A stretch of DNA of 63,481 nucleotides, the filler included, from an uncultured Methanosarcinales archaeon (GTDB taxonomy: Archaea > Nanobdellota > Nanobdellia > Woesearchaeales > CAZOXR01): assembly GCA_964566535.1 (NCBI GenBank). It is 4 parts of 4 records of this genome, joined end to end, with 100 filler letters (N's around TTAATTAATTAA, not from the genome) between each part and the next. Parts side by side here need not be neighbours in the genome. Positions count along the whole stretch, not along the records: positions 1 to 28,728 come from CAZMIO010000014.1; 3 more parts are not named here. The stretch is one strand, 5' to 3'. The notes under the pieces were generated by a model that worked only from the letters and a program-made list of their open reading frames with translations, was not told the origin of the DNA and did not search any database. Below are positions 10,152 through 28,124 of the stretch, one piece after another. Made by a program: the position numbers and the translations under genes. Positions within the stretch are counted from its first letter, which is position 1. The number at the start of each line of letters is the position of its first letter.

Positions 10152-10180
10152 ATTTAATATTCAAAACGAGGTATAAAAAA

Positions 10181-11278: not shown

Positions 11279-11280
11279 TC

Positions 11281-12684: not shown

Positions 12685-12695
12685 AAATATTAAAA

Positions 12696-12752: not shown

Positions 12753-12796
12753 GATTTTTACTCCAGAAAATGGACAATTCATTTTCGCAGAATAAA

Positions 12797-13780
12797 CTAA
12801 ATCAATTCAAGCAAATCTTTTATTGCTTCTTTTAAATTTTTATTTTCATAAAGAACTTTGTACACTTGTGTAGTCAACGGCAAATCTATTCCTTTCTCTT
12901 TACCAAACTCATAAACTGCTTTTGTAGCCTTTACTCCTTCTGCTACCATTCCATGCATCTCTTCCTTAATCTCATCAAACGATTTTCCTTCAGCTAATTT
13001 CTCACCAACAAATCTATTACGGCTGTGTTTAGATGTACACGTAGCAACCAAATCCCCAACACCAGCCAAACCATAACAAGTTGCCCTCTTAGCTCCAAAC
13101 TCCCTTCCAAACTTATTCATCTCAGTAAGTCCAAGTGTGATTATACTGCCCTTAGCATTATCACCTAATCCAAGACCATCACAAATACCTGTTACAATTG
13201 CAGTAATATTCTTCAAAGCTCCACACACCTCAACCCCCACTACATCATCATGAGGATAAACCTTAAAGTAATCAGTAGATAGAATTTCCTTAACCTTCTT
13301 TAAACAAGCCTTATCCTTAGATGCAACAACAGTTGCAGTTGGAATTTTCCTGCTAACTTCTTCAGCATGATTAGGACCAGACAATGCAACTATCTTAACA
13401 AAATCAGGCAACTCATCTTCTAAAATCTGAGACATAGTTTTATACGTTCCAGCCTCAATACCTTTGGCAACATCAACAACAATTACTCCCTCAGACAAAT
13501 ATGGGGAAACTTGCTTAGCAACATCTCGTAAAAACTGAGAAGGAACTGACATGATAACAAGCTCAGCTCCGAAAACAGCGTCCCTTAGGTCATTAACAGC
13601 TTTAACATTTGAAGGAATTTTCACTCCTTTCAAAAACCGTTTATTCTCTCTTTCTTTCTCAATCTCAGAAACTAATTCTTTCTCCCTAACCCATAAATTA
13701 ACATCATATCCTTTCCCACCTAGCAATACAGCTAGTGTAGTTCCCCATGATCCTGCCCCAACAACACTTATTTTTTTCAT
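12797..13780 (-). CDS. gpsA: NAD(P)H-dependent glycerol-3-phosphate dehydrogenase
   Basis: GAGSWGT, VAKGIE, LSGPNHAEEV, GALKN, GLAGVGDLVATCTSKHSRNR, VAEGV. Start taken as ATG 13780. Confidence 0.97.
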   Translation of the reverse strand: MKKISVVGAGSWGTTLAVLLGGKGYDVNLWVREKELVSEIEKERENKRFLKGVKIPSNVKAVNDLRDAVFGAELVIMSVPSQFLRDVAKQVSPYLSEGVIVVDVAKGIEAGTYKTMSQILEDELPDFVKIVALSGPNHAEEVSRKIPTATVVASKDKACLKKVKEILSTDYFKVYPHDDVVGVEVCGALKNITAIVTGICDGLGLGDNAKGSIITLGLTEMNKFGREFGAKRATCYGLAGVGDLVATCTSKHSRNRFVGEKLAEGKSFDEIKEEMHGMVAEGVKATKAVYEFGKEKGIDLPLTTQVYKVLYENKNLKEAIKDLLELI

Positions 13781-13781
13781 C

Positions 13782-14414
13782 TTAATCAAACCCATAATCT
13801 TGCCCTACCAATCCACCTACCTCTTTCATAATCTCGTTAGTAATTCTCCTAAGCACATCTCTATCATTCTCTTTACCATAATACTTGTCAAATGACATTA
13901 ACTTTCCAATCTTAACCTTAGCCTTACTTAACTTAGGAATGGTCTTTCCCTTGGGCAACATATCAAAAGTTCCAATTAAACCAACAGGCAATACTGGAAC
14001 CTTAGCCCTAAGTGCCAGCCTTGCAACTCCTGTCTTCCCTCTTTGTAATTTCCCATCCAATGTCCTAGTCCCTTCAGGATATATCCCCATAATCTTTCCC
14101 TTCTTAAGATACTCAACACCAATATCTAATGACGCCTCACCACCACTTTCTCTATCAAGAGGAATAGCACCAACATATTTGTGCCATACTCGTTGATACA
14201 AACTATCAAAATGTTCTTTTTTTGCTAAAAAATGTAATTTTTGATCATAATGGGGAACTATTACAGTAGACAAAATCAAATGGTCCATATAGCTTCCATG
14301 GTTTGATGCAACAATAAACCCCCCTTCCTTAGGCAAATTCTCAAAACCCTCTACTTCCCCCATATAGAACCTTATTAAAGGAATTATGGTTCTTTTTAAT
14401 ATTGGGTATACCAT
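13782..14414 (-). CDS. plsC: Lysophospholipid/glycerol-3-phosphate acyltransferase (PlsC family), copy 1
   Basis: NHGSYMD (HX4D), FLAKKE, YPEGTR, GVARLAL, PVLPVG. Confidence 0.93.
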   Translation of the reverse strand: MVYPILKRTIIPLIRFYMGEVEGFENLPKEGGFIVASNHGSYMDHLILSTVIVPHYDQKLHFLAKKEHFDSLYQRVWHKYVGAIPLDRESGGEASLDIGVEYLKKGKIMGIYPEGTRTLDGKLQRGKTGVARLALRAKVPVLPVGLIGTFDMLPKGKTIPKLSKAKVKIGKLMSFDKYYGKENDRDVLRRITNEIMKEVGGLVGQDYGFD

Positions 14415-14415
14415 T

Positions 14416-15066
14416 TTAATATCGATACTCCTTACCACTTAATCTGCCAATCTCTTTCATTATTTTAGTCGTAACCTCTATTAAAACCTTTTTATTATTC
14501 TCCTGACCATAATATTTATCAAAAAACACTGGCTCCCCAATATTTACAGAGCACCTCTTAAACTTTATGAACTTCGATCCCTTAGGCATAATCTCATAAC
14601 TCCCCACTATCCCTATAGGTACAACTGGAGTCTTTGCTGTTAAAGCTAACCTAGCAGTCCCGACCTTTGCTTTTTGCAACTCACCATCCGAACTTCTATG
14701 CCCTTCAGGAAATATTGCAATAAGTTCTTTGTCTCGTAGAAGCTTCAGAGACATATCAAATACATTATCATTCACTTTTTTAGATTCATCATTTCTCTGA
14801 CCAACCCTAACAGGTATACATCTCCCATTTTCCAAAAACTTTCTCAAAAAGAAATTCTTATAAAACCCATCATTACAGTAAGTATACAAATATCTGTTCA
14901 AATAAGTAATTACAACAGCAGGCATTATTAGATCATCAGCAAAACTGTTATGATTACACGCAACAATGAACGGATTTGTCTTTTTTAGATTATCTAATCC
15001 CTTTACTTCCTTAACCCACAACTTAGCTAAAGAAAACAACGTTCGACTCATAATTGGGTGCGCCAT
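14416..15066 (-). CDS. plsC: Lysophospholipid/glycerol-3-phosphate acyltransferase (PlsC family), copy 2
   Basis: NHNSFAD (HX4D), FPEGHRS, GTARLAL, PVVPIG. Alternative GTG start at 15081. Confidence 0.9.
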   Translation of the reverse strand: MAHPIMSRTLFSLAKLWVKEVKGLDNLKKTNPFIVACNHNSFADDLIMPAVVITYLNRYLYTYCNDGFYKNFFLRKFLENGRCIPVRVGQRNDESKKVNDNVFDMSLKLLRDKELIAIFPEGHRSSDGELQKAKVGTARLALTAKTPVVPIGIVGSYEIMPKGSKFIKFKRCSVNIGEPVFFDKYYGQENNKKVLIEVTTKIMKEIGRLSGKEYRY

Positions 15067-15077
15067 GTTATCCACTA

Positions 15078-16259
15078 TCACCCAGAAGAATTTAAAGGTT
15101 TCTCTGTTTTTATCTCTTTAATCAAAGCAGGAATTACTTCTTTTACATCACCCACAATGCCATAATCTGCTATCTTAAATATCTCAGCACCAGCATCTTT
15201 ATTTATCGCAATAATCATATCTGAATTCTCCATTCCAACTCTATGTTGTATCGCTCCAGATATTCCACATGCAATATACAGCTTAGGCCTTACAGTCTTC
15301 CCAGTCTGCCCAACCTGATGATCCTTCTTGATCCAACCATTATCTACAACCCCTCTTGAAGCTCCAACTTCGGCCCCAATCAGATCAGCCAACTCCTTAA
15401 GCATATCAACACTCTCTTTCTGACATAATCCTCTCCCACCAGCAATAATTATTCCAGCTTCCTCAAGATTAACATTCTTCTTAGCAGACTTTAAAATCTC
15501 AATAACCTTAACTCTGGAATCGACAACATCAGCTTTTACTTTAACAGTCTCCCCATCCCTACCACTGTCCTTATCCAGCATCTTCATTACACCGGGCCTT
15601 ACAGTAGACATTTGAGGCATTGTTTTACATCTAATCTGTGCCATAATATTTCCACCAAAAGCAGGTCTTGTTTGTATCAATGTGTCATCAGTATCAATAT
15701 CAAGTCCAGTACAGTCAGCCGTTAGTCCAGTACTAGTCCGTTGAGCAATCCTTGGACCTAAATCCCTTCCAATATGTGTAGCTCCGTAAAGAACTATCTG
15801 TGGCCCATATTCATTAATCAAATCAGATATTACTTTAGTATAACTTTCAGTCAAATAACTTCCTAACTTTTCATCCTCAACAACATAAACTTTATCAGCA
15901 CCATGAGCAATTAACCCTTTACTCTTCCCAGAATCAGAAGAACATAAAAGAACAGCAGCTACCTTAACACTAAGCTTCCCAGCAAGATCTCTAGCAGCCC
16001 CTAGTAACTCATAAACAACTCTTGAAATCTTATTATTCCTCTGCTCAGCAAAAACCCAAATCTCTTTCCCTTCCTTAACTTCCTCACTCTTCTCTCCACC
16101 ACTTTCTTCCTTAACTTCTTCAACATGACCAAGAGACATAGCTTGACTTAACTCATAAGATGAAGAAACATCCAAAACATCTCCCTTACGAAGGACATTC
16201 CCCATTCCTAAATCTATCTGAACCCCTGAGTAACTTTCAACTAACTTTACCTTTACCAT
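15078..16259 (-). CDS. etfA: Electron transfer flavoprotein alpha subunit with an N-terminal extension
   Basis: IWVFAEQR, TGLTADCT, QTRPAFGGN, GGRG, QVGQTGKTVRPKLYIACGISGAIQH. Confidence 0.96.
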   Translation of the reverse strand: MVKVKLVESYSGVQIDLGMGNVLRKGDVLDVSSSYELSQAMSLGHVEEVKEESGGEKSEEVKEGKEIWVFAEQRNNKISRVVYELLGAARDLAGKLSVKVAAVLLCSSDSGKSKGLIAHGADKVYVVEDEKLGSYLTESYTKVISDLINEYGPQIVLYGATHIGRDLGPRIAQRTSTGLTADCTGLDIDTDDTLIQTRPAFGGNIMAQIRCKTMPQMSTVRPGVMKMLDKDSGRDGETVKVKADVVDSRVKVIEILKSAKKNVNLEEAGIIIAGGRGLCQKESVDMLKELADLIGAEVGASRGVVDNGWIKKDHQVGQTGKTVRPKLYIACGISGAIQHRVGMENSDMIIAINKDAGAEIFKIADYGIVGDVKEVIPALIKEIKTEKPLNSSG

Positions 16260-16260
16260 T

Positions 16261-17046
16261 TTAATCCTTTATTATCTCCTTTTCCTTCAACATCCCTATA
16301 ACTTCTCCAGCAATCTTCTGAACAGAACCCTCTAACATTTTACCCTGGCCCTTGGCCTCTGGAGCAAATACCTTCTTAACAATTGTCGGACTACTCAATA
16401 AGCCCATCTTCTCTTTCTCAACCTTAATGTCTTCATTTGTCATTACCTTAACTTCCTTTTTATTGTAAGCATCAGAAATACCTTGTAAACTTGGATAAGT
16501 ATTCTCATCAGATATATCCATAACAGTAATCAAAGCAGGCATCTCAACTTCTACAACTTCAATGCCATCTTCTGTCTCCCTCTCAGCCCTAACCTTACCA
16601 TCATTAACTTCAACTTTCTGAACATATGTAACTTGGGGAATTCCCAAATTCTCAGCCAACTGTGGACCAACTTGTGCAGTATCTCCATCAATAGCCTGCC
16701 TCCCACATAATATCAAATCATATTCACCAACTTTCTTCAAACAAGCAGACAAAACATTTGCAGTAGCCCAAGTATCAGAACCAGCAAATGCCCTATCAGT
16801 AAAAAGTATAGCATCATCAGCACCTAATGCAAGTGCCTCACGTAGCGCATCTTCAGCTTGTGGAGGACCCATAGTAATAACAGTAATCTTATTCTCTCCC
16901 TTAAGCTTAACAGCAGTATGAATAGCTTGCTTATCATCAGGATTAATAATAGCGGGAACCCCTTCCCTTTTCATTGTACCAGTCTTAGGATCTATTTTTA
17001 CATCAGTAGTATCCGGCACCTGTTTAATGCATACAATTATTCTCAT
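16261..17046 (-). CDS. etfB: Electron transfer flavoprotein beta subunit (clostridial/bifurcating-like)
   Basis: CIKQVPD, REGVPAIINPDD, MGPPQA, FAGSDTWAT, GRQAIDGDTAQVGP. Confidence 0.96.
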   Translation of the reverse strand: MRIIVCIKQVPDTTDVKIDPKTGTMKREGVPAIINPDDKQAIHTAVKLKGENKITVITMGPPQAEDALREALALGADDAILFTDRAFAGSDTWATANVLSACLKKVGEYDLILCGRQAIDGDTAQVGPQLAENLGIPQVTYVQKVEVNDGKVRAERETEDGIEVVEVEMPALITVMDISDENTYPSLQGISDAYNKKEVKVMTNEDIKVEKEKMGLLSSPTIVKKVFAPEAKGQGKMLEGSVQKIAGEVIGMLKEKEIIKD

Positions 17047-17047
17047 C

Positions 17048-18202
17048 TCAAAAACCCCTCCCTAATAACTCAGCAGCAATAACCATCCTCTGAATCTCAG
17101 AAGTACCTTCATAAATCTCAGTAATCTTAGCATCCCTATAAAACCGTTCAAGTGGATAATCCTTCATATAACCATAACCACCATGTATCTGTATGGCCTT
17201 CCTAGTAACTTCCATAGCAACCTCAGCGCCATACAACTTAGCCATAGCAGCTTCCCTTACATACCTCTTACCTAAATCCTTAACATGCGCTGCCCTCAAA
17301 CAAAGTAACCTAGCAGCATCAATCTGAGTAGCCATATCAGCTAACATAAATTGTAAAGCTTGAAACTTATGCAATTTCCTGCCAAACTGTTCCCTTTCCT
17401 GAACATACTTCAATGATTCATCAAAAGCAGCCTGTGCAATTCCAACACCTTGAACTCCAATTCCAATTCTACCAGAATTAAAAACCCCCATTGAAATCTT
17501 AAAACCCTCTCCTTCAGCACCACCAATTAAGTTCTCCTTAGGAACTCTCATATCCTGAAATATTAACTCTTGAGTATTAGAACCTCTTAAACCTAATTTA
17601 TCCTCTTTCTTACCTAAACTAAAACCTTTCAATCCTTTTGTCTCTAAAGCAAATATTGAAAGTCCTTTGTGTCTCTGAGATTTATCAGTTGTAGTAACAA
17701 TCAAAACAACATCTGCCTTACCGCCAGATGTAATAAAACACTTACTTCCATTGATGATATACTCATCACCGTCCTTTACCGCAGTAGTCTGAACATTAAC
17801 AGCATCAGAACCAGCAGCAGGTTCAGTCAAAGCAAAAGCACCTAAATATTCGCCAGTAGCCATCTTTGTCAGAATCCTTTCCTTCTGGTCCTCGGTTCCG
17901 TGATTTATCAAAGGAAAGCACGTAAGAGAAGTATGGGCTCCCATGGTAACTGCAGTAGCATTACAAGCCTTAGACACTTCTTCCATGATGATTGTTTGAG
18001 AAACATTGTCTAACTCCGCCCCACCATACTTTCTAGGTATTGACATACCCATCATACCTAATTTACCAAGAACCTTTATCTGTTCTTCAGGAAACTTGCT
18101 TTCAGCATCAGATTCAGCAGCATATGGCTTTATCTCTTTGAGGGCAACATCCCTAATCATCTTCTGTACAAGTTCTTGCTCTTTAGTCAATGAAAAATTC
18201 AT
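17048..18202 (-). CDS. bcd: Acyl-CoA dehydrogenase (butyryl-CoA dehydrogenase-like)
   Basis: [39 protein letters not shown], catalytic [10 protein letters not shown]. Start taken as ATG 18202. Confidence 0.93.
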
Positions 18203-18203
18203 C

Positions 18204-18956
18204 TTAGAAAGTAATTCCTCCATCAACCCTGATAACTTGCCCAGAAATATACTTCGCCTTATCAGATGCTAAGAACACAATAGCATTAGCAACATCCTCT
18301 ACTTGACCAAGCTCATTCAATGGAATCAATCCCATTATCTGCTCAAGCATCATAACTGGAATCTTATCAGTCATTGCACTTTTAATAAATCCAGGTGCAA
18401 TAGCATTCACAGTAATCTTCATCTTACCGACTTCCTTTGCAAGTGACTTAGTAAACCCAATAACTCCTGCCTTTGTAGACGCATAATTTGTCTGACCAAA
18501 GTTACCAGAAATTCCAGAAACTGAAGATAAACTAATTATCCTCCCACCTTCTGGAATAAGCCCAAGCGCATTATGTGTAACATTATACATTGAAGTCAAG
18601 TTAACGTTAATAACAGCATTCCATTCTTCCGGCGTCATTTTCTTAAGTGTCCTATCTTTTGTAATTCCGGCATTATTAACCAAGATGTCTATCTTCTCAA
18701 ACTTTCCCTTAATCTCATCCATCATCTTCTTAACGTCATCAAAATTAGAAACATCTGCAGTTATAGCAATAGCCTCAACACCCAAAGCCGTAATCTCTTC
18801 AACTGTCTTTTCAGCCTCATTCTTAGACGGATCAATATCATTAACAACAATATTGCAGCCATTCTTAGCTAACTCTAAAGCAATAGCTTTACCAATACCT
18901 CTAGATGAACCTGTTATCAATGCAACCTTTCCTTTTAATCCTAAATCCATTTTCAT
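18204..18956 (-). CDS. fabG: 3-oxoacyl-thioester reductase (FabG/PhaB-type SDR)
   Basis: [28 protein letters not shown] (YxxxK), NAIAPGFI. Confidence 0.92.
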
Positions 18957-19005
18957 TCCCCCCTCGATAGTTCGAGTAACTAATATTCTTTTTAATATTT
19001 TTTCA

Positions 19006-20142
19006 TTAAACCTTCTTCAAAATATGACAAACAGTAGTACCTCCAGCACCACCAATATTATGAGCCAAAGCATTATTGACATTAGAAAGCTGCCTATCCC
19101 CAGCCTCTCCTCTCATTTGCTTAACTATTTCATAAATCATCCCGAGTCCAGTAGCAGAAACAGGATGACCTTTAGCCTTAAGCCCACCAGAAACATTCAC
19201 CGGCATCTTACCATCCATTTTAAACCTACCATCTCTAATGGCCTTGTATGCCTCACCTTTCTTACAAAACCCTAAGTCCTCATAAGCAAGAAGCTCAACA
19301 ATTGTAAAAGCATCGTGCAACTCAGCAAAATCAATATCTCCCCTATCAAGCCCTGCCTGTTTAAACACTTCATTACCTGTAGTTACAGTCCCGTCCCATT
19401 TAGTTAAATCTTCTCTCTCAAAAGGGGACATATAATCGGCACTCAACGAAGAACCCTTAATTTCAACATCAGTCTTATCCTTAGTCAAAACAACAGCACT
19501 AGCTCCATCAACAGTTATACTACAGTCAAACAGCCTCAAAGGAGACGTAACAACAGGAGAATTCTTTATCTTATCCAAACTAACTTTTTTCCCATAAAAG
19601 TAAGCATTAGGGTTTAAATATCCATTCTCATGATTCTTGTGAGCAATCATTGCCAAATCATCCATATTAGTTTCTGGAAATTTATTCAAATAAGATTGAG
19701 CAACTAAAGCATTCTCAGCTGGGAAGATAATTCCTTCCATCTGCTCCCACTTAGATTCAGCAGCCATCATAAACTCACTAGTAACCTGATCTGAATTATT
19801 AGTATGTCCGTGCAATTTCTCAACACCAACAACTAAAACATTATCAAAACCCAGCCTATTAGCAGTCCACAAAGCAGAACCTCCACTAGCACAGGCAGCA
19901 GGAGACTTAATTATTGGAATATTTGTCTTCAAAATACCAGACAACATTGAAGCAAAATGCCTTTGAAACTCACCATTATAAAACCAATCCAAAGTAGAAC
20001 AAACAACTGCATCTATTTTACTCATATTTGTATCAGCATCTTTAAGAGCATTAACGATAGCATCATAAGCTAAGAACTGACTTCTCCTATCATGAATCCT
20101 GTACGGAATACATCCAACTCCTTTGATAAACATCCTACTCAC
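19006..20142 (-). CDS. Archaeal/SCP2-type thiolase (acetyl-CoA acyltransferase), copy 1
   Basis: AACASGG (nucleophilic Cys), PLRLFDCS, ELHDAFT, NVSGGLKAKGHPVSATG, HNIGG. Confidence 0.92.
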   Translation of the reverse strand: MSRMFIKGVGCIPYRIHDRRSQFLAYDAIVNALKDADTNMSKIDAVVCSTLDWFYNGEFQRHFASMLSGILKTNIPIIKSPAACASGGSALWTANRLGFDNVLVVGVEKLHGHTNNSDQVTSEFMMAAESKWEQMEGIIFPAENALVAQSYLNKFPETNMDDLAMIAHKNHENGYLNPNAYFYGKKVSLDKIKNSPVVTSPLRLFDCSITVDGASAVVLTKDKTDVEIKGSSLSADYMSPFEREDLTKWDGTVTTGNEVFKQAGLDRGDIDFAELHDAFTIVELLAYEDLGFCKKGEAYKAIRDGRFKMDGKMPVNVSGGLKAKGHPVSATGLGMIYEIVKQMRGEAGDRQLSNVNNALAHNIGGAGGTTVCHILKKV

Positions 20143-20665
20143 CCATCCCCCGCAACAATGCTTTCTTATTCAGCTCAATAATCTCTTCCTTAGCTCTAGG
20201 AAAGACCTTCTTCATAACCTTAAAAATAGATTCTTTATCCAAAATATCTTTACTTTTCAAATAAGCACCAACCATAATAACATTAGCAACTCTTTTATTC
20301 CCGAGTTCTTCAGCAATCTTTGTAGCATCAATCTCAAAAACTGTAACGTCCTCTCTACTAACCTTACTCTTACATTCAGAAATATTTAAGATCAGAATCC
20401 CGCCTTTGGCAACCTTGTCTTCAAATTTCCTCAAAGATTCATCATTCATTATTAGGATAGTGGTAGGATTAAGAATAACTGGACTCCCAATCTTCTTATC
20501 AGATATTGTAACACTTGAATTAGCAGTGCCTCCCCTCATCTCAACACCATACGAAACAGTACCACAAACTTCTAAACCTTGTTCCATTGCAGCATTAGCA
20601 ATCAAACTACCAGCAAGTACAACACCTTGCCCACCATACCCTGCAATTAAGATATCTTCCTTCAT
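20135..20665 (-). CDS. 2-oxoacid:ferredoxin oxidoreductase gamma subunit
   Basis: AGYGGQGV, SYGVEMRGGTANS, ANVIMVGA. Confidence 0.93.
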   Translation of the reverse strand: MKEDILIAGYGGQGVVLAGSLIANAAMEQGLEVCGTVSYGVEMRGGTANSSVTISDKKIGSPVILNPTTILIMNDESLRKFEDKVAKGGILILNISECKSKVSREDVTVFEIDATKIAEELGNKRVANVIMVGAYLKSKDILDKESIFKVMKKVFPRAKEEIIELNKKALLRGMGE

Positions 20666-21393
20666 CTCTCATTCCTCACATCTTTAAAAACCTTAAGTGG
20701 AAAATATTTTTTCATTTCATCAACAAAATCTAACCCTCCCTTAATATCAGTTTTCCAGCCAGTCGGACACATAGATAAAATCTCAACAAAAGAATAACCC
20801 TTACCTTCAATCTGGCACTTAAATGCTTTCATCAAAGCTTCCTTTGTTTTTTTAAAACCATCAGCATCGTGCACAGAAACCCGCTCAATATATGAAGGCC
20901 CATCTAGTGTACTTAACATCTCGCACATCTTCAATGGCATCCCTTCAGAATTATTCCCTCGTCCAGAAGGAGTAGTTGAAGTTACTTGATTAGGTAAAGT
21001 GGTAGGAGCCATCTGTCCTCCAGTCATTCCATAAATTGCATTATTAACAAATATAACTGTAATATTCTCTCCCCTATTTGCAGTATGTATCGTCTCATTA
21101 GTTCCTATTGCAGCCAAGTCCCCATCTCCTTGATAAGCAAAAACAAGCTTGTCTGGCAAACATCTTTTAATAGCACTCATTACTGATGGAACCCTTCCAT
21201 GAGAACATTCAATCATATCAACATTAATATAATTATAAAACAAAACAGCACAACCAACAGGAGCAGAACCAATTGTTTTCTCCCTAATCCCAAGTTCATC
21301 AATAACTTCACCCATTAGTTTGTGAACTAATGTATGGCCGCAGCCAGGACAATAGTGCATCTTCCCTTCTTTGATTGTAGTTCCTGGACTCAT
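20662..21393 (-). CDS. 2-oxoacid:ferredoxin oxidoreductase beta subunit (TPP-binding)
   Basis: YCPGCGH, PVGC, HGR, YQGDGDLAAIG, NNAIYGMTGGQMAPTT, EILSMCPTGW. Confidence 0.94.
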   Translation of the reverse strand: MSPGTTIKEGKMHYCPGCGHTLVHKLMGEVIDELGIREKTIGSAPVGCAVLFYNYINVDMIECSHGRVPSVMSAIKRCLPDKLVFAYQGDGDLAAIGTNETIHTANRGENITVIFVNNAIYGMTGGQMAPTTLPNQVTSTTPSGRGNNSEGMPLKMCEMLSTLDGPSYIERVSVHDADGFKKTKEALMKAFKCQIEGKGYSFVEILSMCPTGWKTDIKGGLDFVDEMKKYFPLKVFKDVRNER

Positions 21394-22442
21394 TTTATTT
21401 CATGTACCTTCTCAATTATTTGCTTGGTGTCGGGATACCATCCACCACCGTGACCCAAAAAGTAAAACTCTCCTTCGCAATCCATACTTAACTTTACATC
21501 CTCAATCAACTGTCCTTCACTCATCTCAACAACAAGAACTTTCTTCCCTTTATACTTACTAAACACTTTCTCCGGAAAAGGCCACAAACTAATTGGCTGG
21601 ACCAACCCTATCTTCACTCCCTCCTTCCTTAGATCATCAACAGATTCTCTACTAATTCTGGCAGGACTACCATAGGCAGCAATAATAATATCTGCATCAT
21701 CAGTCATATACTCATTACATAAACTCAACTCATCTTTTATCTTTCCATACTTCTCTTGTAAATGAATGTTATGCTTTACAAGAGAATCAGGAGGGGATAA
21801 CAATAAAGTCTTAATCACATGAGGCTCCCTTCCCTCACAACCATTCAACACCCAACTATCTTTAGAAGGCAAATCTAATATCGGCTTATAATTCCTTAAC
21901 TCAACAGGCTCAGCCATTTGTGCTAAAATTCCATCTCCTAATATCAAAACAGGATTCCTATAGTAATCAGCATAATCAAAAGCATTCATCGTAAGGTCAT
22001 ACAATTCTTGTATGTTGGATGGAGCAAGAACTATCAACTTATAGTCCCCATGACCCCCTCCTTTTGTTGACTGAAAATAATCTCCTTGTGAAGCCCTAAT
22101 ATTTCCCAAACCAGGACCTCCTCTAACCATATTAACAATTACACATGGTAATTCAGCAGAAGCCAGATAACTAATCCCTTCCTGTTTTAATGAAATCCCT
22201 GGAGAAGATGAAGAAGTCATACACCTTACACCGGAAGCCGAAGCCCCAAATATCATATTAATAGCAGACAACTCAGCTTCAGCCTGAATAAAAACTGCAT
22301 CAAAATCAGGACCTCTCTTAGACATATACTCAGGAATCTCATTCTGAGGAGTTATAGGATAACCTGCATAAAACTTACAACCAGCTCTAAGAGCCGCCTC
22401 TACGCAAGACTCATTCCCCTTCATCAATGCTTTCTCAGTCAT
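21390..22442 (-). CDS. vorB: 2-oxoacid:ferredoxin oxidoreductase alpha subunit (VorB/ketoisovalerate-type)
   Basis: LMKGNE, GYPITPQNEI, TSSSSPGISLKQEGISY, RGGPGLGNI, SQGDYFQSTKGGGHGDY. Start taken as ATG 22442. Confidence 0.88.
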   Translation of the reverse strand: MTEKALMKGNESCVEAALRAGCKFYAGYPITPQNEIPEYMSKRGPDFDAVFIQAEAELSAINMIFGASASGVRCMTSSSSPGISLKQEGISYLASAELPCVIVNMVRGGPGLGNIRASQGDYFQSTKGGGHGDYKLIVLAPSNIQELYDLTMNAFDYADYYRNPVLILGDGILAQMAEPVELRNYKPILDLPSKDSWVLNGCEGREPHVIKTLLLSPPDSLVKHNIHLQEKYGKIKDELSLCNEYMTDDADIIIAAYGSPARISRESVDDLRKEGVKIGLVQPISLWPFPEKVFSKYKGKKVLVVEMSEGQLIEDVKLSMDCEGEFYFLGHGGGWYPDTKQIIEKVHEIK

Positions 22443-22578
22443 TTTATCATTCCTTTGTATGTCAGGTACCACTGTTCTTCATCACAGTGATTCCAACTCA
22501 ATTGTGTGAACGAATTTTGCCTTCACTATAATCTTCAAGCAAAATTTCTATTTAGTATCCAACGTTTTATTTTTCTAA

Positions 22579-23718
22579 TCAACTCATCTTAATTAACTTC
22601 GAACCAATAGCAGGCTTAAGCTCCCTTCTGCAAGCATCAAGTTCATCACCAACAACAACAATCTCCCTTAAATCTGAACATCCTACATCAAGTTTCCCAG
22701 CCAACTCAATATGCTCAGCATCTTTAAGCAACCCAATCTCCTGAAAAACTTTATCAAGCGCAACTGGATCGCAAGAAGCCAAAACCATATTCATAAAAGC
22801 CGGTTCACCATACTTCATTGGACCATTACCTTGCATACCAATTGAAGCATCACCCAATGTTACATACTTAGGCAAAACCTTGTGCAGCTGTACAATGCCT
22901 TCAACAGCTTTTTTAGGATCCTTGCTTAATTCCTTATAATTCTCAGCAGAAATAAGCCTAGTCATGTTCTCTAATGCACCAACAATCCCCAATAATAAAT
23001 GAGTTTTAAGTATGGGAACATTAATCACTAAATCACTATCAAAGACTTCCTTAGCAATGCTAAAATTAATCCCCTCACTTTCTTTCTCAACAAACTCACT
23101 CTTAGAAACATCAACAAACTTAATTCCTAACTCCTTAACAATTTTCCCAAAGCCACTTTTACTAACTGCCTTTCCAAAATCACCATACTGAGTTTGCTCA
23201 GCAAGAGTAATATTCTCCACCTTAACACCCTTCTCAACCAAATAATCAATCAAAGCCTTAACAACCTTAGGGTTAGTAGTCATAGCTAGATATGGATAAG
23301 CTTCAACCATCACATCTGGCTTTATCAGTACCCTCGTACTATCATCAACATCAACCCCACCAATCAATTCCAAAGCCTGCTTAACAGCTTCATCATAATC
23401 ATATTTAATCTTAACAATAGCTACGGCATTTTCATCATCACTTTTCTTCCATGAAAACTCGTCCCCTATCTTATATTCCTTCATTACTTTCTTAGGCATC
23501 CGGTTTCCATTCTCATCCTCTAAAATCAAGGTATAGTAAGGCACAATTGGATGTATTGGTGAAGGAATAGAAATTTTAGTAACACCAACCACTTTTGTCT
23601 TCTTACCAACAATCTTTTCAATCTTTCCACCATCCTTACAATAAACACATTTCTCAATAGGGTAAATCCATTTCTTGTTACATTCTTTACATATCCATCT
23701 TATTATCAATTCAACCAC
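22579..23718 (-). CDS. Fusion of a DUF35-like Zn-ribbon/OB domain and a DUF362-like domain
   Basis: N-terminus CKEC...YP...CVYC followed by an OB-like VPY segment. C-terminus RVLIKPD, TTNPKVV, DLVINVPILKTH, GNGP..GEP, DPVALD. Confidence 0.75.
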   Translation of the reverse strand: MVELIIRWICKECNKKWIYPIEKCVYCKDGGKIEKIVGKKTKVVGVTKISIPSPIHPIVPYYTLILEDENGNRMPKKVMKEYKIGDEFSWKKSDDENAVAIVKIKYDYDEAVKQALELIGGVDVDDSTRVLIKPDVMVEAYPYLAMTTNPKVVKALIDYLVEKGVKVENITLAEQTQYGDFGKAVSKSGFGKIVKELGIKFVDVSKSEFVEKESEGINFSIAKEVFDSDLVINVPILKTHLLLGIVGALENMTRLISAENYKELSKDPKKAVEGIVQLHKVLPKYVTLGDASIGMQGNGPMKYGEPAFMNMVLASCDPVALDKVFQEIGLLKDAEHIELAGKLDVGCSDLREIVVVGDELDACRRELKPAIGSKLIKMS

Positions 23719-24844
23719 CTACATTCTTAAAAATATTTACACTAATAGAAGCTCCAACACCACCTATATTCTGAGTCATTCCATATTTGTGTTTACTTAT
23801 TTGTCTATCTCCGCATTCTCCTCTTAACTGTTTGACAATTTCATAAACTTGCGCAAGTCCAGTAGGGCTAATTGGATGCCCCCTTGCTTTAAGTCCACCG
23901 CCAGTGTTTACTGGTAGCTTACCATCTAGCTTAGTTACTCCATCCCTTATCATCTTTGAACCTTCACCTTTTTTACAAAATCCTAAATCTTCATAAGACA
24001 TAAGCTCAAGAATCGTAAAAGCATCATGTACCTCTAAAACATCAACAGAACTTGCACCAATCTCTGCTTGATTATAAGCCTGCTCACTAGCCAACTTACT
24101 AGCCTTAAATTCAACTAAACTATCTCTCTCCATTGTCATCAAATAATCAGTTGCAAAACCACTACCTGCAATCTCAATATCTGTCTTATCCTTAGTCAAA
24201 ATAGTAGCAGCAGCTCCATTAACACTTATACTACAATCAAACAACCTTAGCGGAGAAGCAACAACAGGGGAATTCTTAATCTTATCCAAGCCAACTTTCT
24301 TACCATAAAAAGCAGCTTTCGGATTCAAAAAAGCATTCTCATGATTCTTGTGGGCAATCATTGCTAGATCATCAGAGGTAGCATCAAACTTCATCATATA
24401 CTGTTGCGCTAAAAGTGCATTCTCAGCAGGAAATATCAATCCCTCTTCCTGACTCCATACTCTGTCAGCTGCACTCAATATCTCATTAGTAATTGCCTCA
24501 GTTTTATTACATGCAATCTTATCTGTAGCAACAACCAAAACGTTATCAAAACCCAGTCTGTTAGCAGTCCATAAAGCAGCCCCACCACCACCACAAACAG
24601 CAGGAACCCGAATAATCGGAATTTTTTTCTTCAACAAAGAACTCAAAAGCGACTGATAATGCCTTTGCCTTTCATCAGTCATTAAAGTATCAACAGTGGC
24701 AACAACAACAGCATCAATATCTTCCATCGATACATTTGAATCTTTTAATGCCTCAAGAATCGCATCATCAGCAAGTTTAAAACTACTCTCATCATCTACC
24801 GAAAACTTGCTCATACCAACTCCTTGGACATACATAGAATTCAC
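23711..24844 (-). CDS. Archaeal/SCP2-type thiolase, copy 2
   Basis: PAVCGGGG (Cys), PLRLFDCS, EVHDAFT, NTGGGLKARGHPISPTG, QNIGG. Confidence 0.92.
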   Translation of the reverse strand: MNSMYVQGVGMSKFSVDDESSFKLADDAILEALKDSNVSMEDIDAVVVATVDTLMTDERQRHYQSLLSSLLKKKIPIIRVPAVCGGGGAALWTANRLGFDNVLVVATDKIACNKTEAITNEILSAADRVWSQEEGLIFPAENALLAQQYMMKFDATSDDLAMIAHKNHENAFLNPKAAFYGKKVGLDKIKNSPVVASPLRLFDCSISVNGAAATILTKDKTDIEIAGSGFATDYLMTMERDSLVEFKASKLASEQAYNQAEIGASSVDVLEVHDAFTILELMSYEDLGFCKKGEGSKMIRDGVTKLDGKLPVNTGGGLKARGHPISPTGLAQVYEIVKQLRGECGDRQISKHKYGMTQNIGGVGASISVNIFKNVGG

Positions 24845-25341
24845 CTATATACCGGGCTGTATTTTGATCTAAATTGTTTTCTGTCAACCACAGCCAGCAT
24901 TAGCATACATTGTGCAACCGTATTTCCATCAACTTTTGCAATTGCTTGAAGCATTGCTCCTTTCTCATCCTGTCCCATTAGTGTTATTTCATAAACTAAC
25001 TGGTCCCCTGGGAAAGTAGGAGCATTAAACTTAGCTTCTTTAATTTTATAAGCAAGAACTTCCTTTTCATGGTGATTTTCAAGATTATATCTCACAAGTA
25101 AAGTTCCAGCTTGACCTAATCCTTCAATAATAAGTGCACCAGGCATTATTGGAAATCCTGCAAAGTGACCTTTAAAAAAATCCTCATTAGCACTAGTATT
25201 TTTTATAGCAACTATCTTATTTTTCTCTATACTAGTGACTCTGTCAATCATCAAAAAAGGGGCTTCATAGGGTATAATCTGCTTGATTCCATTGGAATCT
25301 ATCTGTCCTTTTTCGTCCTTAAATTCATCTATTGATTTCAT
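24841..25341 (-). CDS. fabZ: 3-hydroxyacyl-thioester dehydratase (FabZ hot-dog fold)
   Basis: IPYEAPFLMIDRV, FFKGHFAGFPIMPGALIIEGLGQ (catalytic His/Glu), FPGD; SD GGAGG upstream. Confidence 0.93.
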   Translation of the reverse strand: MKSIDEFKDEKGQIDSNGIKQIIPYEAPFLMIDRVTSIEKNKIVAIKNTSANEDFFKGHFAGFPIMPGALIIEGLGQAGTLLVRYNLENHHEKEVLAYKIKEAKFNAPTFPGDQLVYEITLMGQDEKGAMLQAIAKVDGNTVAQCMLMLAVVDRKQFRSKYSPVYR

Positions 25342-25456
25342 TTAATATTCCTCCATCCAACACCCACATTCTAGTCAAGGAAAGAAAAGTCCATTTAAAA
25401 AGGCTTCGCTTTCTAATCATAACGTTTAAATAGGCCTAAAAGCTCCAAAATACCTC
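25342..25456. promoter_or_regulatory. Divergent promoter region for the lipid operon and accC-birA
   Basis: Back-to-back TATA-like boxes: TTTTTAAAT on the minus strand (about 25394-25402) and TTTAAATA on the plus strand (about 25425-25432). Confidence 0.5.
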
Positions 25457-27358
25457 ATGAATACCAAGCCAAACAAGATAGAAAGAATACTAAATAAGCT
25501 ACTTTCACCAGTGGAAATTAGCTACAAATTAGTCCAAAAAATAGCCAAAAAAACACATGATTCAATACCTTTCGTTTATCATGAAGTTGAAGCCCTAATT
25601 AAGTCTCAATTAGTCGGTTTAGAGAAAGATAAGACTCTCCTTCACTCACCAGACATAGAATCATTTACTAGTGTTATAGCAAATAATGTAATGAAGAAAC
25701 TTCCTAACATTGATGAAACAGATATTAAGAAAGTTGTTGCAGAAAAATCATCAAAATCATTTCTAGATATGCTTACAAGGGGACTTGGACAAACAATCGA
25801 AAAAGAAAAAGACTTTACAGTTCTAAAAGAAGAAAAACGCTTAAAAAAAATACTAATTGCAAACAGGGGAGAAATAGCATTAAGGGTTATCAGAGCATGC
25901 AAAGAACTAGGAATCCAAACAGTAGTTGTTTACACTAAACACGATAAAGATTCTTTAGCAGTAAGATTCGCAGATCAGGCTCACTGCATTGGAAACGCAA
26001 ACGGTTATCTAGAACCAAAAAAGATAGTTGAAATAGCAAAAAAAACCAACTCCCAAGCAATCCATCCAGGTTATGGTTTCTTAGCAGAGAATGCAGAGTT
26101 TGCAGAGATGTGTGAAAAAAACAAAATCAAGTTTATTGGCCCTACTTCAAAAACAATTAACTTACTGGGAAACAAAATCCAAGCCAGAGAAGTTATGATA
26201 AATTCAAACGTTCCAGTTCTTAGCGGAACAAGGAAAACATTAGAGAATGAAACACACGCATCGGATATTGCCGAAAAAATAGGATACCCCATAATGATAA
26301 AAGCAGTTGGAGGAGGCGGTGGGAAGGGTATGAGAATTATTAAATCAAAAAAAGAACTAGCAGAAGGTTATAAGTCTGCAGAAGTAGAAGCGGCAATGTC
26401 ATTTGGAAACTCAGAACTTTACATGGAAAAATATTTAGAAGATCCTAGACACATCGAATTCCAAATTCTCGCAGACCAGCATGGAAAGATTATCCATTTA
26501 GGGGAAAGAGAATGTAGTATCCAAAGAAAACACCAAAAACTAATTGAAGAAGCTCCTTCAGTAGCATTAAACAAAAAACTTAGGGAAACTATGGGCAGTG
26601 CCGCAGTAAAAGCAGTATCAGCAGTTGGTTATCAAGGCGCAGGAACAGTAGAATTCTTACTTGACCCAAATAATAACTTCTTTTTCATTGAAATGAATAC
26701 AAGAATCCAAGTAGAGCACGGAGTTACTGAAATGATAACAGGTGTTGACTTAGTAAAGGAACAAATAAAGCTTGCAGCAGGAGCAAAACTTGCTTACAAT
26801 CAAGACGACATCAAAATGAATGGTTGGGCAATTGAATGTAGGATTAATGCAGAATGTCCAGAGGAAGGATTCTGTCCGGATGTTGGCGCAATCACTAACT
26901 ACCTCCCTCCAGGTGGGCCAGGAATTAGGGTATGCTCAAGCTGCCACACAGGCCATATAATCTCCCCTCATTACGATTCATTAATATCAAAATTAATTTG
27001 CGGTGGAAAAAATAGAAACGAAGCAATAGCAAGGATGAAAAGGGCCCTAGACGAGTACATTATAGACGGAGTAAAAACAACAATCCCATTCCATAAAGTT
27101 GTTTTAGAAAATAAACAATTCCAAAGGGGGAACATCTCAACATCATTTATAGAAAAGTACGACATCCTTAGCGAATTAAAAAAAGTGAAAAAATCAAAGA
27201 AAAAGGAATTGTCAAAAAAAGAAAAGTTATTAATAGTTACAACCGCAGTTTCAAAATATGTTGGAAACAGGGGAACAACAACCAGCAATAGAACCAGTCC
27301 ATGGGTCATGACTGGAAGACAAGAAGCAATTAGTCAAAATGAAAGTTCATCATTTTAA
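25457..27358 (+). CDS. accC: Biotin carboxylase subunit with a roughly 125-aa N-terminal extension
   Basis: KILIANRGEIA, AIHPGYGFLAEN, GGGGKGMR, ERECSIQRKHQK, FIEMNTRIQVEH, ECRINAE, YDSLISKL; tail ...TAVSKY...SPWVMTGR. Confidence 0.92.
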   Translation: MNTKPNKIERILNKLLSPVEISYKLVQKIAKKTHDSIPFVYHEVEALIKSQLVGLEKDKTLLHSPDIESFTSVIANNVMKKLPNIDETDIKKVVAEKSSKSFLDMLTRGLGQTIEKEKDFTVLKEEKRLKKILIANRGEIALRVIRACKELGIQTVVVYTKHDKDSLAVRFADQAHCIGNANGYLEPKKIVEIAKKTNSQAIHPGYGFLAENAEFAEMCEKNKIKFIGPTSKTINLLGNKIQAREVMINSNVPVLSGTRKTLENETHASDIAEKIGYPIMIKAVGGGGGKGMRIIKSKKELAEGYKSAEVEAAMSFGNSELYMEKYLEDPRHIEFQILADQHGKIIHLGERECSIQRKHQKLIEEAPSVALNKKLRETMGSAAVKAVSAVGYQGAGTVEFLLDPNNNFFFIEMNTRIQVEHGVTEMITGVDLVKEQIKLAAGAKLAYNQDDIKMNGWAIECRINAECPEEGFCPDVGAITNYLPPGGPGIRVCSSCHTGHIISPHYDSLISKLICGGKNRNEAIARMKRALDEYIIDGVKTTIPFHKVVLENKQFQRGNISTSFIEKYDILSELKKVKKSKKKELSKKEKLLIVTTAVSKYVGNRGTTTSNRTSPWVMTGRQEAISQNESSSF

Positions 27359-28034
27359 AACATTAGACTCCACAAACACAAAAGCAAGAGACTTCTCAAA
27401 AAATAACTTAATCGTAGCAGATACCCAGACAAAAGGTAGAGGCAGACATAAAAGACAATGGGATTCTAATAAAGGGGGACTATGGCTTTCCATTGTTCTC
27501 GAACCAAAAACAAAAAACCCAGCAGAACTAACATTTCTAGCAGCAGTTGCAGTACAAAAAGCAATAAAAAGAACTACAAAACTAGAAACAAAAATAAAAT
27601 GGCCAAACGACCTCCTCCATAAAGACAAAAAGTTATGTGGAATCCTAACAGAAGCAATTTTCAAGGGAAACTCAAAAAAAATGATCGTAGGCATTGGAAT
27701 CAACGTCAACAACAAACTTCCAATATCGTTAAAATCAAAAGCAACATCAATAAAAGAAATACTAAAAAAAGAAACAAACCTAAAAGGACTACTAACAAAC
27801 CTAATAAATCAATTTAACACACTCCACAAAACATACCAAGAAAAAGGATTCATACCAATATTAAACAAATGGAAAAGCTCATGTGACACAATAGGCAAAG
27901 CAATCAAAGTCAAAACATTAAAACAAAGATTAGTAGGCAAAGCAATCAAAGTAAACAAAGACTGCAGCCTAACAATAAGACTAAAGAACAACAAACTAAA
28001 GAAGATTGTAGAAGGAGATATTTTTACGGTATAA
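27339..28034 (+). CDS. birA: Biotin--protein ligase (class I, no HTH)
   Basis: DSTN, QTKGRGR, KWPND, KKLCGIL, VGIGINVN. Confidence 0.96.
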   Translation: MKVHHFKTLDSTNTKARDFSKNNLIVADTQTKGRGRHKRQWDSNKGGLWLSIVLEPKTKNPAELTFLAAVAVQKAIKRTTKLETKIKWPNDLLHKDKKLCGILTEAIFKGNSKKMIVGIGINVNNKLPISLKSKATSIKEILKKETNLKGLLTNLINQFNTLHKTYQEKGFIPILNKWKSSCDTIGKAIKVKTLKQRLVGKAIKVNKDCSLTIRLKNNKLKKIVEGDIFTV

Positions 28035-28124
28035 TTTGAGAAGTAAGGGATATCATTAACAAAGATTTAAAAATAAAGTATGTTTTCTCCACTATAGGTT
28101 TATAGTTATTGAGGGAAACAAACA

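Follow-up and report, generated by a model that had tools for sequence, protein, structure and literature searches.

A conserved Woesearchaeal operon predicted to link carrier-free fatty-acid synthesis to glycerol-3-phosphate acylation

Background

Archaeal membranes are made of sn-glycerol-1-phosphate (G1P) isoprenoid ethers and bacterial membranes of sn-glycerol-3-phosphate (G3P) fatty-acyl esters, and this lipid divide is central to early cell evolution and to the origin of bacterial-type membranes in eukaryotes of archaeal ancestry. Fatty-acid synthesis independent of acyl carrier protein (ACP) was reportedly proposed for archaea by Lombard et al. in 2012 and Dibrova et al. in 2014, and the lipid genes of Marine Group II are said to have been treated by Villanueva et al. 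in 2017. The closest described system is the fatty acid synthase (FAS) complex of Sulfolobus acidocaldarius, which according to the available preprint text consists of a ketothiolase (KT, Saci_1121), a DUF35 protein (Saci_1120), a short-chain dehydrogenase/reductase (SDR, Saci_1104), a MaoC dehydratase (Saci_1085) and a medium-chain dehydrogenase/reductase (MDR) enoyl-CoA reductase (Saci_1115) (10.1101/2024.07.05.601840). Here we describe a 14-gene operon, located in a 63,481-nucleotide stretch (the window) of the genome of an uncultured Woesearchaeales archaeon, in which thiolase genes and genes of bacterial fatty-acid synthesis type adjoin two plsC-like genes and gpsA.

Several of these genes have been noted in related archaea. 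In the portions of the papers that are accessible, GpsA was reported from Woesearchaeota, PlsC and PlsY from DPANN bins, and GpsA, PlsC and PlsY from Marine Group II/III, DPANN and Asgard archaea (Coleman et al. 2019, PMC6431249), genes of the methylerythritol phosphate (MEP) pathway and of 'bacterial fatty acid synthesis' were reported from Woesearchaeota (Castelle et al. 2021, PMC8204110), and FabG, FabI and FabZ were reported from marine DPANN genomes of oxygen-deficient zones (PMC10936187). These three accounts, as far as accessible, give gene presence under ACP-type labels, for this lineage and for a number of the genes treated here. DPANN, PlsC and GpsA are never mentioned in the accessible preprint text on the Sulfolobus complex (Schmerling et al. 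2024, 10.1101/2024.07.05.601840). In the accessible literature we found neither an operon of thiolase, DUF35-DUF362, Bcd/Etf and plsC-plsC-gpsA genes nor an ACP-free reading of such genes, and Supplementary Table 4 (gene co-location) of PMC8204110 may hold more. For Woesearchaeota, GpsA, the MEP pathway and fatty-acid genes of bacterial type were already on record; what is new here is the operon-level, thiolase-based ACP-free model, no operon-level model having been found in print.

Results

Structure of the operon

The operon occupies positions 12797-25341 on the minus strand, where ORF listing and the Pfam and NCBIfam searches identified 14 closely packed open reading frames (ORFs), with the divergent pair accC-birA beside them. 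All three sources agreed with the gene families proposed in the initial annotation. We consider it rather probable that the operon encodes a fatty-acid synthase that is CoA-based and ACP-free and that supplies two successive acylations of G3P, since the linkage of its condensing and reducing genes to plsC-plsC-gpsA is invariant and is most readily accounted for if the acyl-CoA made is used to acylate G3P. The genes are listed below, those of the operon in order of transcription and with the supporting matches in parentheses.

24841-25341, minus strand: fabZ, first operon gene, predicted (R)-3-hydroxyacyl thioester dehydratase of hotdog fold (PF07977, 90.9 bits; NF000582, 133.3 bits, cut-off 113)
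23711-24844, minus strand: thiolase 1, predicted SCP-x/archaeal-type ketothiolase (Thiolase_C_1, 156.9 bits; NF004720, 351.7 bits, below the cut-off of 420)
22579-23718, minus strand: DUF35-like/DUF362 fusion of 379 amino acids (PF04015, 130 bits, residues 130-325)
21390-22472, minus strand: alpha subunit, VorB-like, of a predicted 2-oxoacid:ferredoxin oxidoreductase (OFOR) (POR_N, 169.8 bits; NF005507, 494.7 bits, cut-off 399)
20662-21393, minus strand: OFOR beta subunit, thiamine pyrophosphate and Fe-S type (TPP_enzyme_C, 66.5 bits; the top NCBIfam matches, to OFOR beta subunits, all miss their cut-offs)
20135-20665, minus strand: OFOR gamma subunit (PF01558, 143.8 bits; TIGR02175, 93.1 bits, cut-off 81.1)
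19006-20142, minus strand: thiolase 2 (Thiolase_C_1, 155.5 bits)
18204-18956, minus strand: fabG, predicted 3-ketoacyl thioester reductase of the SDR family (TIGR01830, 299.5 bits, cut-off 297.75)
17048-18226, minus strand: Acd, Bcd-type acyl-CoA dehydrogenase (four Acyl-CoA_dh domains in Pfam)
16261-17046, minus strand: etfB, small subunit (PDB matches to bifurcating Etf chains)
15078-16259, minus strand: etfA, large subunit (PDB matches to bifurcating Etf chains)
14416-15081, minus strand: PlsC-family acyltransferase 2, candidate glycerol-3-phosphate acyltransferase (GPAT) or lysophosphatidic acid acyltransferase (LPAAT) (PF01553, 85.6 bits; TIGR00530, 61.1 bits, below 102.95)
13782-14438, minus strand: PlsC-family acyltransferase 1, candidate LPAAT or GPAT (PF01553, 99.9 bits; TIGR00530, 86.7 bits, below 102.95)
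12797-13795, minus strand: gpsA, last operon gene, predicted NAD(P)H-dependent G3P dehydrogenase (NF000942, 413.4 bits, cut-off 257)
25457-27358, plus strand: accC, predicted biotin carboxylase, divergent from fabZ (TIGR00514, 656 bits, cut-off 626.5)
27339-28034, plus strand: birA, predicted biotin-protein ligase (TIGR00121, 201 bits, cut-off 83.1)
7271-8041, plus strand: lgt, predicted prolipoprotein diacylglyceryl transferase, on the same contig and outside the operon (TIGR00544, 220.5 bits, cut-off 118.9)

Among the 13 junctions there are eight overlaps (4-23 bp) and two gaps of 1 bp, the larger gaps being 49, 106 and 115 bp; the 115-bp spacer is the divergent promoter region between fabZ and accC. 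GpsA, FabG, FabZ, AccC, BirA and the OFOR alpha and gamma subunits score above the curated NCBIfam cut-offs, and the thiolases, Acd, the Etf subunits and the acyltransferases below them. The operon is composed of both archaeal-type parts (the SCP-x type thiolases and the DUF35-like domain) and bacterial-type parts (FabG, FabZ, GpsA, the PlsC family and Bcd/EtfAB), as had been supposed.

Conservation of the operon and integrity of the contig

The genome under study (G000) is metagenome-assembled, with 1.45 Mb in 37 contigs, a completeness of 91.05% and a contamination of 0.09%; the NCBI taxonomy puts Woesearchaeota in the kingdom Nanobdellati. The window consists of contigs C14, C15, C23 and C27 with runs of N between them; C14 in its entirety makes up positions 1-28728, and readings that cross position 28729 would be spurious. 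The initial annotation had placed the cluster on one gap-free contig with archaeal fen, radA, rpa and rps2, and all of these do lie within the N-free C14, whose upstream part encodes a FEN1-type nuclease, Trm5/Tyw2, alanyl-tRNA synthetase, an RPA-like protein, RadA (Rad51 family, 275 bits), a TRAM protein, Rps2 and, unexpectedly, an Lgt of bacterial type. Four further C14 ORFs of 152-398 amino acids (10-1206, 4908-5465, 6526-7269 and 28125-28583) matched no Pfam family.

To compare loci, DNA was fetched around GpsA matches and relatives of thiolase 2 and compared by BLASTP; genomes are labelled G and loci L. The same gene order was found in G023, G038 (in which loci L019 and L040 are one contig) and L046, with protein identities of 41-79%. 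L041 has the operon complete except for OFOR, and L042 has it from the OFOR gamma gene to gpsA, which is as far as the truncated contig reaches, while L043, L047, L048, G015 and G001 carry variants of the core. The invariant core is fabZ-thiolase-fusion-thiolase-fabG, followed by plsC-plsC-gpsA where the locus extends that far and usually facing accC-birA, and it is kept even without OFOR or Acd/Etf. The recurrence of this gene order in other genomes, at protein identities of 43-79%, is far beyond chance. Of 401 species genomes sampled evenly from the order, 36 contain the fusion gene at E <= 1e-30 (21 of 281 when only high-quality genomes are counted), and the gene is concentrated in certain families (for example 7/7 and 5/7); four of the 36 genomes are unpublished (G132, G207, G209 and G315), and excluding them gives 32 of 397. 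The single integrated operon, which had been singled out as unusual, is real and conserved but not a one-off.

The several bacterial-type genes and the assembly of a metagenome into 37 contigs might suggest that bacterial DNA has been joined to an archaeal contig by faulty assembly or binning. We regard this as extremely unlikely. The neighbourhood of gpsA, with rps2, TRAM and radA, is conserved in other genomes, and gpsA directly adjoins rps2 in nine genomes including the present one (G000, G015, G023, G038, L041, L042, L043, L046 and L048). The initial annotation had asked whether coverage or read pairing breaks between rps2 and gpsA, and no break was found: contigs from three other seawater studies span the junction with 0 differences (10593-12943, 11543-13024 and 12365-13518). 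When contigs of four runs from four studies, none of which is flagged as a possible source of the genome, were mapped on positions 9000-28700, all 30 of the 30 bins were covered in each, at flat depth, and the region 11400-19000 occurs nearly verbatim (at least half of the sampled words) in 15 runs of marine and seawater studies, with no RNA run among those listed. The GC content of the cluster (0.36-0.39) matches that of the remaining window (0.31-0.40), and the contamination of the genome is low, as given above. A contig of run X4 joining 21234 to 24029 was considered as an OFOR-less variant and set aside as too weak, with 20 letters on its short side. We conclude that this is a real, conserved, lineage-wide operon of DPANN archaea (labelled Woesearchaeota or Nanoarchaeota) and no assembly chimera, which these data confirm.

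Thiolases and the DUF35-like/DUF362 fusion

The two thiolases are paralogues with 57% identity. An alignment of 16 thiolase paralogues shows Cys84, His273 and His323 in all 16, and both operon thiolases retain these catalytic residues; orthologues of thiolase 2 were found in six loci at 59-79% identity. The genes of thiolase 1 and of the fusion share 8 bp. The fusion is full-length in nine of nine aligned genomes, and among the 120 homologues listed of 289 clusters, which are full-length or nearly so, every named one comes from Woesearchaeota or Nanoarchaeota.

The DUF362 part of the fusion (PF04015) agrees with the DUF35-DUF362 gene described in the initial annotation, but the DUF35 half was not seen by Pfam: neither Pfam nor NCBIfam gave a DUF35 match to the N-terminal 110 residues, and a PDB profile search with the fusion alignment returned nothing meaningful. 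An AlphaFold model of the fusion (mean pLDDT 73, with N-terminal residues 39-88 below 50) was searched with Foldseek. The N-terminal domain matched the DUF35 chains 7pyt_A, 6ok1_B and 6esq_F (E 1.6e-3 to 1e-2, target TM about 0.4), which belong to the benzoylsuccinyl-CoA thiolase, Ltp2-ChsH2 and thiolase/HMG-CoA synthase complexes. A model of the complex of a thiolase 1 dimer with fusion residues 1-112 scored 0.84 against 0.00 for the best control, with at least 55% of contacts shared between runs and a partner pLDDT of at least 72; 116 of 157 solved complexes attain this mark, as do 2 of 215 mismatched pairs, and the pass may reflect likeness rather than binding, since similar complexes have already been solved. 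The fold search and the complex model together suggest that residues of about 1-110 may form a zinc-ribbon/OB DUF35-like domain on which thiolases dock.

For the C-terminal domain, Foldseek returned lactate/malate racemases (LarA-like; 7s91, E 1e-7), and in the available text of PMC11770544 DUF362 and the LarA N-terminal family are assigned to the same Pfam clan. Nickel-pincer catalysis of the LarA type by DUF362 was considered and set aside, as no invariant His is present in the DUF362 part of the fusion alignment (LarB, LarC and LarE were not searched). The fusion orthologues at L045:9925-11385 and L047:9927-11375 are longer near the C-terminus by an additional region of about 110 residues, in which a CPAC motif and more cysteines occur.

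FabG, FabZ, Acd/EtfAB and OFOR

FabZ retains the catalytic His (GHF) and Glu (IIEG), and its orthologues occupy the equivalent position in seven loci at 53-75% identity; the S...YxxxK triad of FabG is seen in the sequence. The best PDB match of Acd is 5ol2_C, Clostridium difficile Bcd of the Bcd-EtfAB complex (440 bits), followed by the short-chain acyl-CoA dehydrogenases (SCADs, 336-399 bits), the medium-chain enzyme (MCAD, 282-294 bits) and the long-chain enzyme (LCAD, 232 bits). The catalytic-Glu motif IYEGT is retained, and we read Acd as a candidate enoyl-CoA reductase. EtfB scores 285 bits with CarD (6fah_B), 260 with 5ol2_B and 212 with 4kpu_B; its scores range over 189-285 bits against bifurcating chains (6fah_B, 5ol2_B, 4kpu_B, 7qh2_B and 7koe_A), as against 84-87 bits for the non-bifurcating electron-transferring flavoproteins (ETFs) 1efp, 1efv, 1o94 and 2a1t and 49 bits for 5ow0. 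EtfA follows the same pattern (CarE 6fah_A, 354 bits; 5ol2_A, 335 bits; human ETF, 159 bits), so that for both subunits the Etfs of bifurcating complexes (CarDE, C. difficile Bcd-Etf, Acidaminococcus fermentans Etf and Lct) score two to three times as high as non-bifurcating ETFs. EtfAB is thus most like the electron-bifurcating complexes, and NADH/ferredoxin coupling is predicted from this resemblance. EtfA also has a conserved N-terminal extension (residues 1-65, 16065-16259) with 0-1 Cys in five of five orthologues, and the CarE and LctC chains are longer there too.

The genes Acd-etfB-etfA were found in six genomes and are missing from loci L043, L047 and L048. A complete CoA-based elongation cycle, as initially claimed, would therefore be encoded by the full gene set here but is not complete everywhere. 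At L047:13237-15842 and L048:3267-5410, an HMG-CoA-synthase-like gene and a thiolase gene directly follow fabG, at the position of Acd/Etf, with a canonical DUF35 gene after them in L047; the place of Acd/Etf in L043 holds just small unassigned ORFs and a thymidylate-kinase-like gene. In G038, a 622-amino-acid radical S-adenosylmethionine (SAM)/B12-binding gene (L040:11128-12996, minus strand) lies antisense between thiolase 2 and fabG, and could be a candidate for a lipid-modifying enzyme.

OFOR genes are present in G000, G023, G038, L046 and the truncated L042; they are absent between intact neighbours in L041, L043, L045 and L047, and from L048 as well. Since it is missing from five related loci, OFOR is an accessory insert and not part of the core. 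The OFOR genes do stand in the operon, but the view that they are wired in as its primer supply does not extend to these five loci.

These enzymes could also be taken as a fermentative redox module, in which OFOR, thiolase, FabG, FabZ and Bcd/EtfAB would form butyryl-CoA or some other acyl-CoA of short chain and in this way balance NADH and reduce ferredoxin, the lipid genes being merely co-located. The affinity of Acd for C. difficile Bcd (440 bits), the bifurcating-like EtfAB and the location of OFOR in the middle of the operon agree with such a module, and a fermentative lifestyle is the general prediction for DPANN archaea, according to the accessible text of PMC8204110. We nevertheless think it unlikely, because the connection with plsC-plsC-gpsA and accC-birA persists among loci of 43-79% identity even without OFOR or Acd/Etf, because the cluster is without phosphotransbutyrylase, butyrate kinase or CoA transferase, and because Hbd- and Crt-type enzymes were not found in G000, where the crotonase family (PF00378) gave no match and 3HCDH (PF02737) gave only sub-cut-off Rossmann matches, the best being gpsA itself. 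Catabolic beta-oxidation, with fatty acids and G3P drawn from scavenged lipids, seems very improbable to us. Acyl-CoA dehydrogenase, ETF and thiolases are its classical parts and GpsA is reversible, but the (S)-specific hydratase and dehydrogenase were not found in G000, the Etf is most like NADH-linked reductive complexes, and the acyltransferases, biotin carboxylase and BirA would have no catabolic role. In addition, no ETF acceptor such as ETF:quinone oxidoreductase is present in the cluster, the genome not having been searched for one.

Acyltransferases, GpsA and the accC-birA pair

Acyltransferases 1 and 2 share 36% identity and have the motifs expected of the family, HX4D (NHGSYMD) and PEGTR in the first and HX4D (NHNSFAD) and PEGHR in the second. 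The sole PDB match of both is Thermotoga maritima PlsC, 5kym (E 3.8e-19 for acyltransferase 1 and 2.6e-11 for acyltransferase 2). Acyltransferase 1 is a member of a large Woesearchaeal family, and the 120 homologues listed are Woesearchaeal only, with no bacterial outgroup. In G000, PF01553 matched three ORFs only, of about 210-230 amino acids, none of them PlsB-sized, and PlsY (PF02660) was not found, PlsX not being searched. Both Pfam domains of GpsA match at E of about 1e-55. PF01210 matched in 21 of 41 genomes of the order, 15 of these matches being, by our count, strong, full-length GpsA.

The accC gene is divergent from fabZ in six genomes including G000, and birA adjoins accC in all of these except L041, whose contig ends inside accC. 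Candidate partners of AccC, a PccB/MmdA-type carboxyltransferase with an adjacent biotin carboxyl carrier protein (BCCP), are encoded on contig C16. The conserved accC-birA pair, together with the carboxyltransferase and BCCP elsewhere, suggests a malonyl-CoA step, and condensation driven by malonyl-CoA, at which these genes hint, would solve the unfavourable equilibrium of the thiolase reaction. The initial annotation had proposed that elongation is coupled to phospholipid assembly; the invariant plsC-plsC-gpsA linkage speaks for this, although a malonyl-CoA step involving accC was left out of that proposal. AccC is extended by about 125 residues at the N-terminus (25457-25840, where a SSKSFLDMLTRGL motif is conserved) and by a conserved tail at the C-terminus (27170-27358), both present in all six orthologues compared and neither matching any family.

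Lipid genes elsewhere in the genome

The cluster had been described as having neither ACP nor a FabB/F/H ketosynthase, and neither was found in the cluster or in the genome. ACP (PF00550) gave no match in G000 (91% complete), G023 (100% complete) or G038, with 11 of 14 controls detected and AcpS not searched, and ketoacyl synthase (PF00109) gave none in G000, with 14 of 14 controls detected. HMG-CoA reductase was not found in G000, so that the thiolase/DUF35 pair does not serve the mevalonate pathway; IspG of the MEP pathway is present in G000 and likewise in G001, G015, G023 and G038. UbiA-type prenyltransferase, G1P dehydrogenase and geranylgeranylglyceryl phosphate synthase (GGGPS) were not found in G000 either. 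Two candidates were rejected: a weak PcrB match considered as GGGPS is a HisA/F protein, and a Fe-ADH_2 match considered as G1P dehydrogenase is the 3-dehydroquinate synthase of a shikimate operon.

A second lipid locus (L030, contig C7 of G000, 5140-8946) encodes a CarS-like cytidylyltransferase, a third HX4D acyltransferase and a PgsA-like CDP-alcohol phosphatidyltransferase. The CarS-like protein is the sole CTP_transf_1 match in G000 (PF01864, 103.8 bits; NF003114, 127.9 bits, below 148), and the PgsA-like protein scores 104 bits with TIGR00560 (cut-off 109.1) against 44 bits for archaeal inositol-phosphate synthase. The third acyltransferase gene is divergent from the PgsA-like gene, and a family 2 (GT2) glycosyltransferase gene and a radical SAM gene are in this locus too. 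Weak matches to cyclopropane fatty acid synthase (CMAS; 63 and 41 bits) in G000 were not used.

Lgt uses phosphatidylglycerol, and the Lgt encoded on C14 is likely a consumer of this lipid. Lgt (PF01790) and LspA were each found in 38 of the 41 genomes of the order, with both controls giving 10 of 10 bacteria and none of four archaea; the LspA gene of G000 is at C1:290485-290877. Archaeal lipoproteins are the subject of a 2025 paper, the available text of which states that homologues of Lgt or Lsp had not been identified in archaea (PMC12462473).

The wide distribution of Lgt and LspA (38/41 each) compared with the fusion (36/401) implies that most relatives must obtain diacyl lipids in some other way, and this, with the lack of lipid synthesis in many DPANN archaea, is what gives salvage its appeal as an explanation: host lipids or fatty acids would be taken up, backbones would be re-acylated by GpsA and the PlsC-like enzymes, and the thiolase cycle would do no more than lengthen or trim imported chains of short or medium length. 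Large ORFs of about 820 amino acids, in which a carrier (PP-binding) domain is combined with a PlsC-type acyltransferase domain in an Aas-like manner, were observed in other Woesearchaeales (G019:C3:20375-21124 and G002:C14:12007-12750); they fit such a lifestyle and suggest a different, salvage-type solution in those species. For the present operon, however, there seems only a small chance that salvage or remodelling is the function. The full set for condensation, reduction, dehydration and reduction, with a carboxylase, exceeds what remodelling needs, and no long-chain acyl-CoA ligase was recognised: among 589 ORFs of at least 300 amino acids scanned with a regular expression for the AMP-binding motif, acetate-CoA ligase was the only confirmed ligase, which is a weak negative, as the scan can miss divergent ligases.

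Discussion

The enzymatic steps, the direction of flux and the final lipid that we infer for the ACP-free, CoA-based synthase are as follows. The two thiolases would dock on the DUF35-like domain of the fusion and condense an acyl-CoA with a C2 unit, which would be acetyl-CoA or possibly malonyl-CoA made via AccC, BCCP and the carboxyltransferase. The resulting 3-ketoacyl-CoA would be reduced by FabG and dehydrated by FabZ, and the enoyl-CoA would be reduced with NADH by the Bcd-like dehydrogenase and the bifurcating-type EtfAB. Where the VorB-like OFOR is present, it may supply acetyl-CoA or branched acyl-CoA starters. GpsA would provide G3P, and the two PlsC-family enzymes, with acyl-CoA donors, would convert it to phosphatidic acid. 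The CarS-like cytidylyltransferase and the PgsA-like transferase could continue from there to phosphatidylglycerol, which Lgt would then use to lipidate proteins. On paper, the predicted enzymes thus provide a path from dihydroxyacetone phosphate and acetyl-CoA to phosphatidylglycerol.

Several points weigh against this pathway. The usual substrates of FabG and FabZ are ACP thioesters. The three related genomes whose loci are without Acd/Etf (L043, L047 and L048) gave no match to an Acd query, and no obvious enoyl reductase is found at those loci. The PlsC-family acyltransferases both align with T. maritima PlsC, which carries an N-terminal membrane motif, only from about residue 65, and their TIGR00530 scores (86.7 and 61.1 bits) stay under the cut-off for the PlsC domain (102.95). 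The cytidylyltransferase is of the archaeal CarS type with a sub-equivalog score, and its use of phosphatidic acid is only predicted. The absences from the genome are provisional, since the assembly is 91% complete; moreover, UbiA was not found in 26 of the 41 genomes of the order, and archaeal lipid genes are often missing both from genomes that carry the cluster and from those that do not, so that the distinctive feature is the presence of an ester-lipid route and not the absence of archaeal lipid genes. A thiolase route has no need for a conserved carboxylase, and in Sulfolobus, according to the accessible preprint text, the use of malonyl-CoA was disproved for one ketothiolase (10.1101/2024.07.05.601840). 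The products of the Sulfolobus complex are, in the same text, mainly C4-C10 acyl-CoA (Schmerling et al. 2024, 10.1101/2024.07.05.601840), and as Acd is closest to the short-chain enzymes Bcd and SCAD, chains of membrane length can only be proposed.

A bolder proposal, which we make tentatively and consider somewhat doubtful, is that a clade of Woesearchaeales has replaced the isoprenoid-ether membrane by self-made fatty-acyl G3P phospholipids, up to phosphatidylglycerol and Lgt/LspA-processed lipoproteins, by means of a hybrid carrier-free synthase. An archaeal thiolase/DUF35 scaffold would in that case have recruited bacterial FabG and FabZ and a flavin-based Bcd/Etf, with DUF362 taking a new catalytic or tethering role. 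If this is true, such a replacement would mean that there are natural archaea on the bacterial side of the lipid divide. The operon itself offers a concrete, testable candidate for an ACP-free route to archaeal ester phospholipids in about a tenth of the sampled Woesearchaeales species, and it runs counter to the idea that all lipids of DPANN archaea have to be stolen. It also places DUF362 in a metabolic context, in a compact gene set that could be expressed and assayed in Escherichia coli.

Of the archaeal G1P isoprenoid ether pathway, G1P dehydrogenase, GGGPS, UbiA and HMG-CoA reductase were not found in the 91% complete G000, and IspG of the MEP pathway is present instead. The clostridial butyrate pathway (Thl-Hbd-Crt-Bcd/Etf) differs in its Hbd and crotonase, which were not found in G000. 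Clostridial Bcd/EtfAB (5ol2) and CarCDE (6fah) are the top sequence matches for all three subunits, with the catalytic Glu motif kept, but the genes here lie between fabG and the acyltransferases and not with hbd and crt, and EtfA has its Cys-poor extension; CarE has a ferredoxin domain. The operon resembles the bacterial FAS II/phosphatidic acid pathway in FabG, FabZ, GpsA, AccC and BirA, all above their cut-offs, and in the presence of PlsC-family, PgsA-like and Lgt/LspA proteins; it differs in that ACP, ketosynthase and PlsY were not found, condensation would be by thiolase, the reductase would be Bcd/Etf and the cytidylyltransferase is of the CarS type.

The S. acidocaldarius FAS complex is similar in being ACP-free and CoA-based, with a ketothiolase and a DUF35 adaptor, a FabG-like SDR, a hotdog dehydratase and a separate enoyl-CoA reductase. 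In contrast to that complex, the operon has two thiolase paralogues and a divergent DUF35 part fused to DUF362, a bacterial FabZ (PF07977) in place of the MaoC dehydratase, and a Bcd/EtfAB flavoprotein complex in place of the NADPH-dependent MDR reductase. Its genes also form one operon with plsC-plsC-gpsA beside accC-birA, in a DPANN host in which no archaeal lipid genes were found. The operon is best read as a hybrid form of the KT/DUF35 complex of Sulfolobus that, in a DPANN archaeon, is tied to phospholipid assembly of bacterial type.

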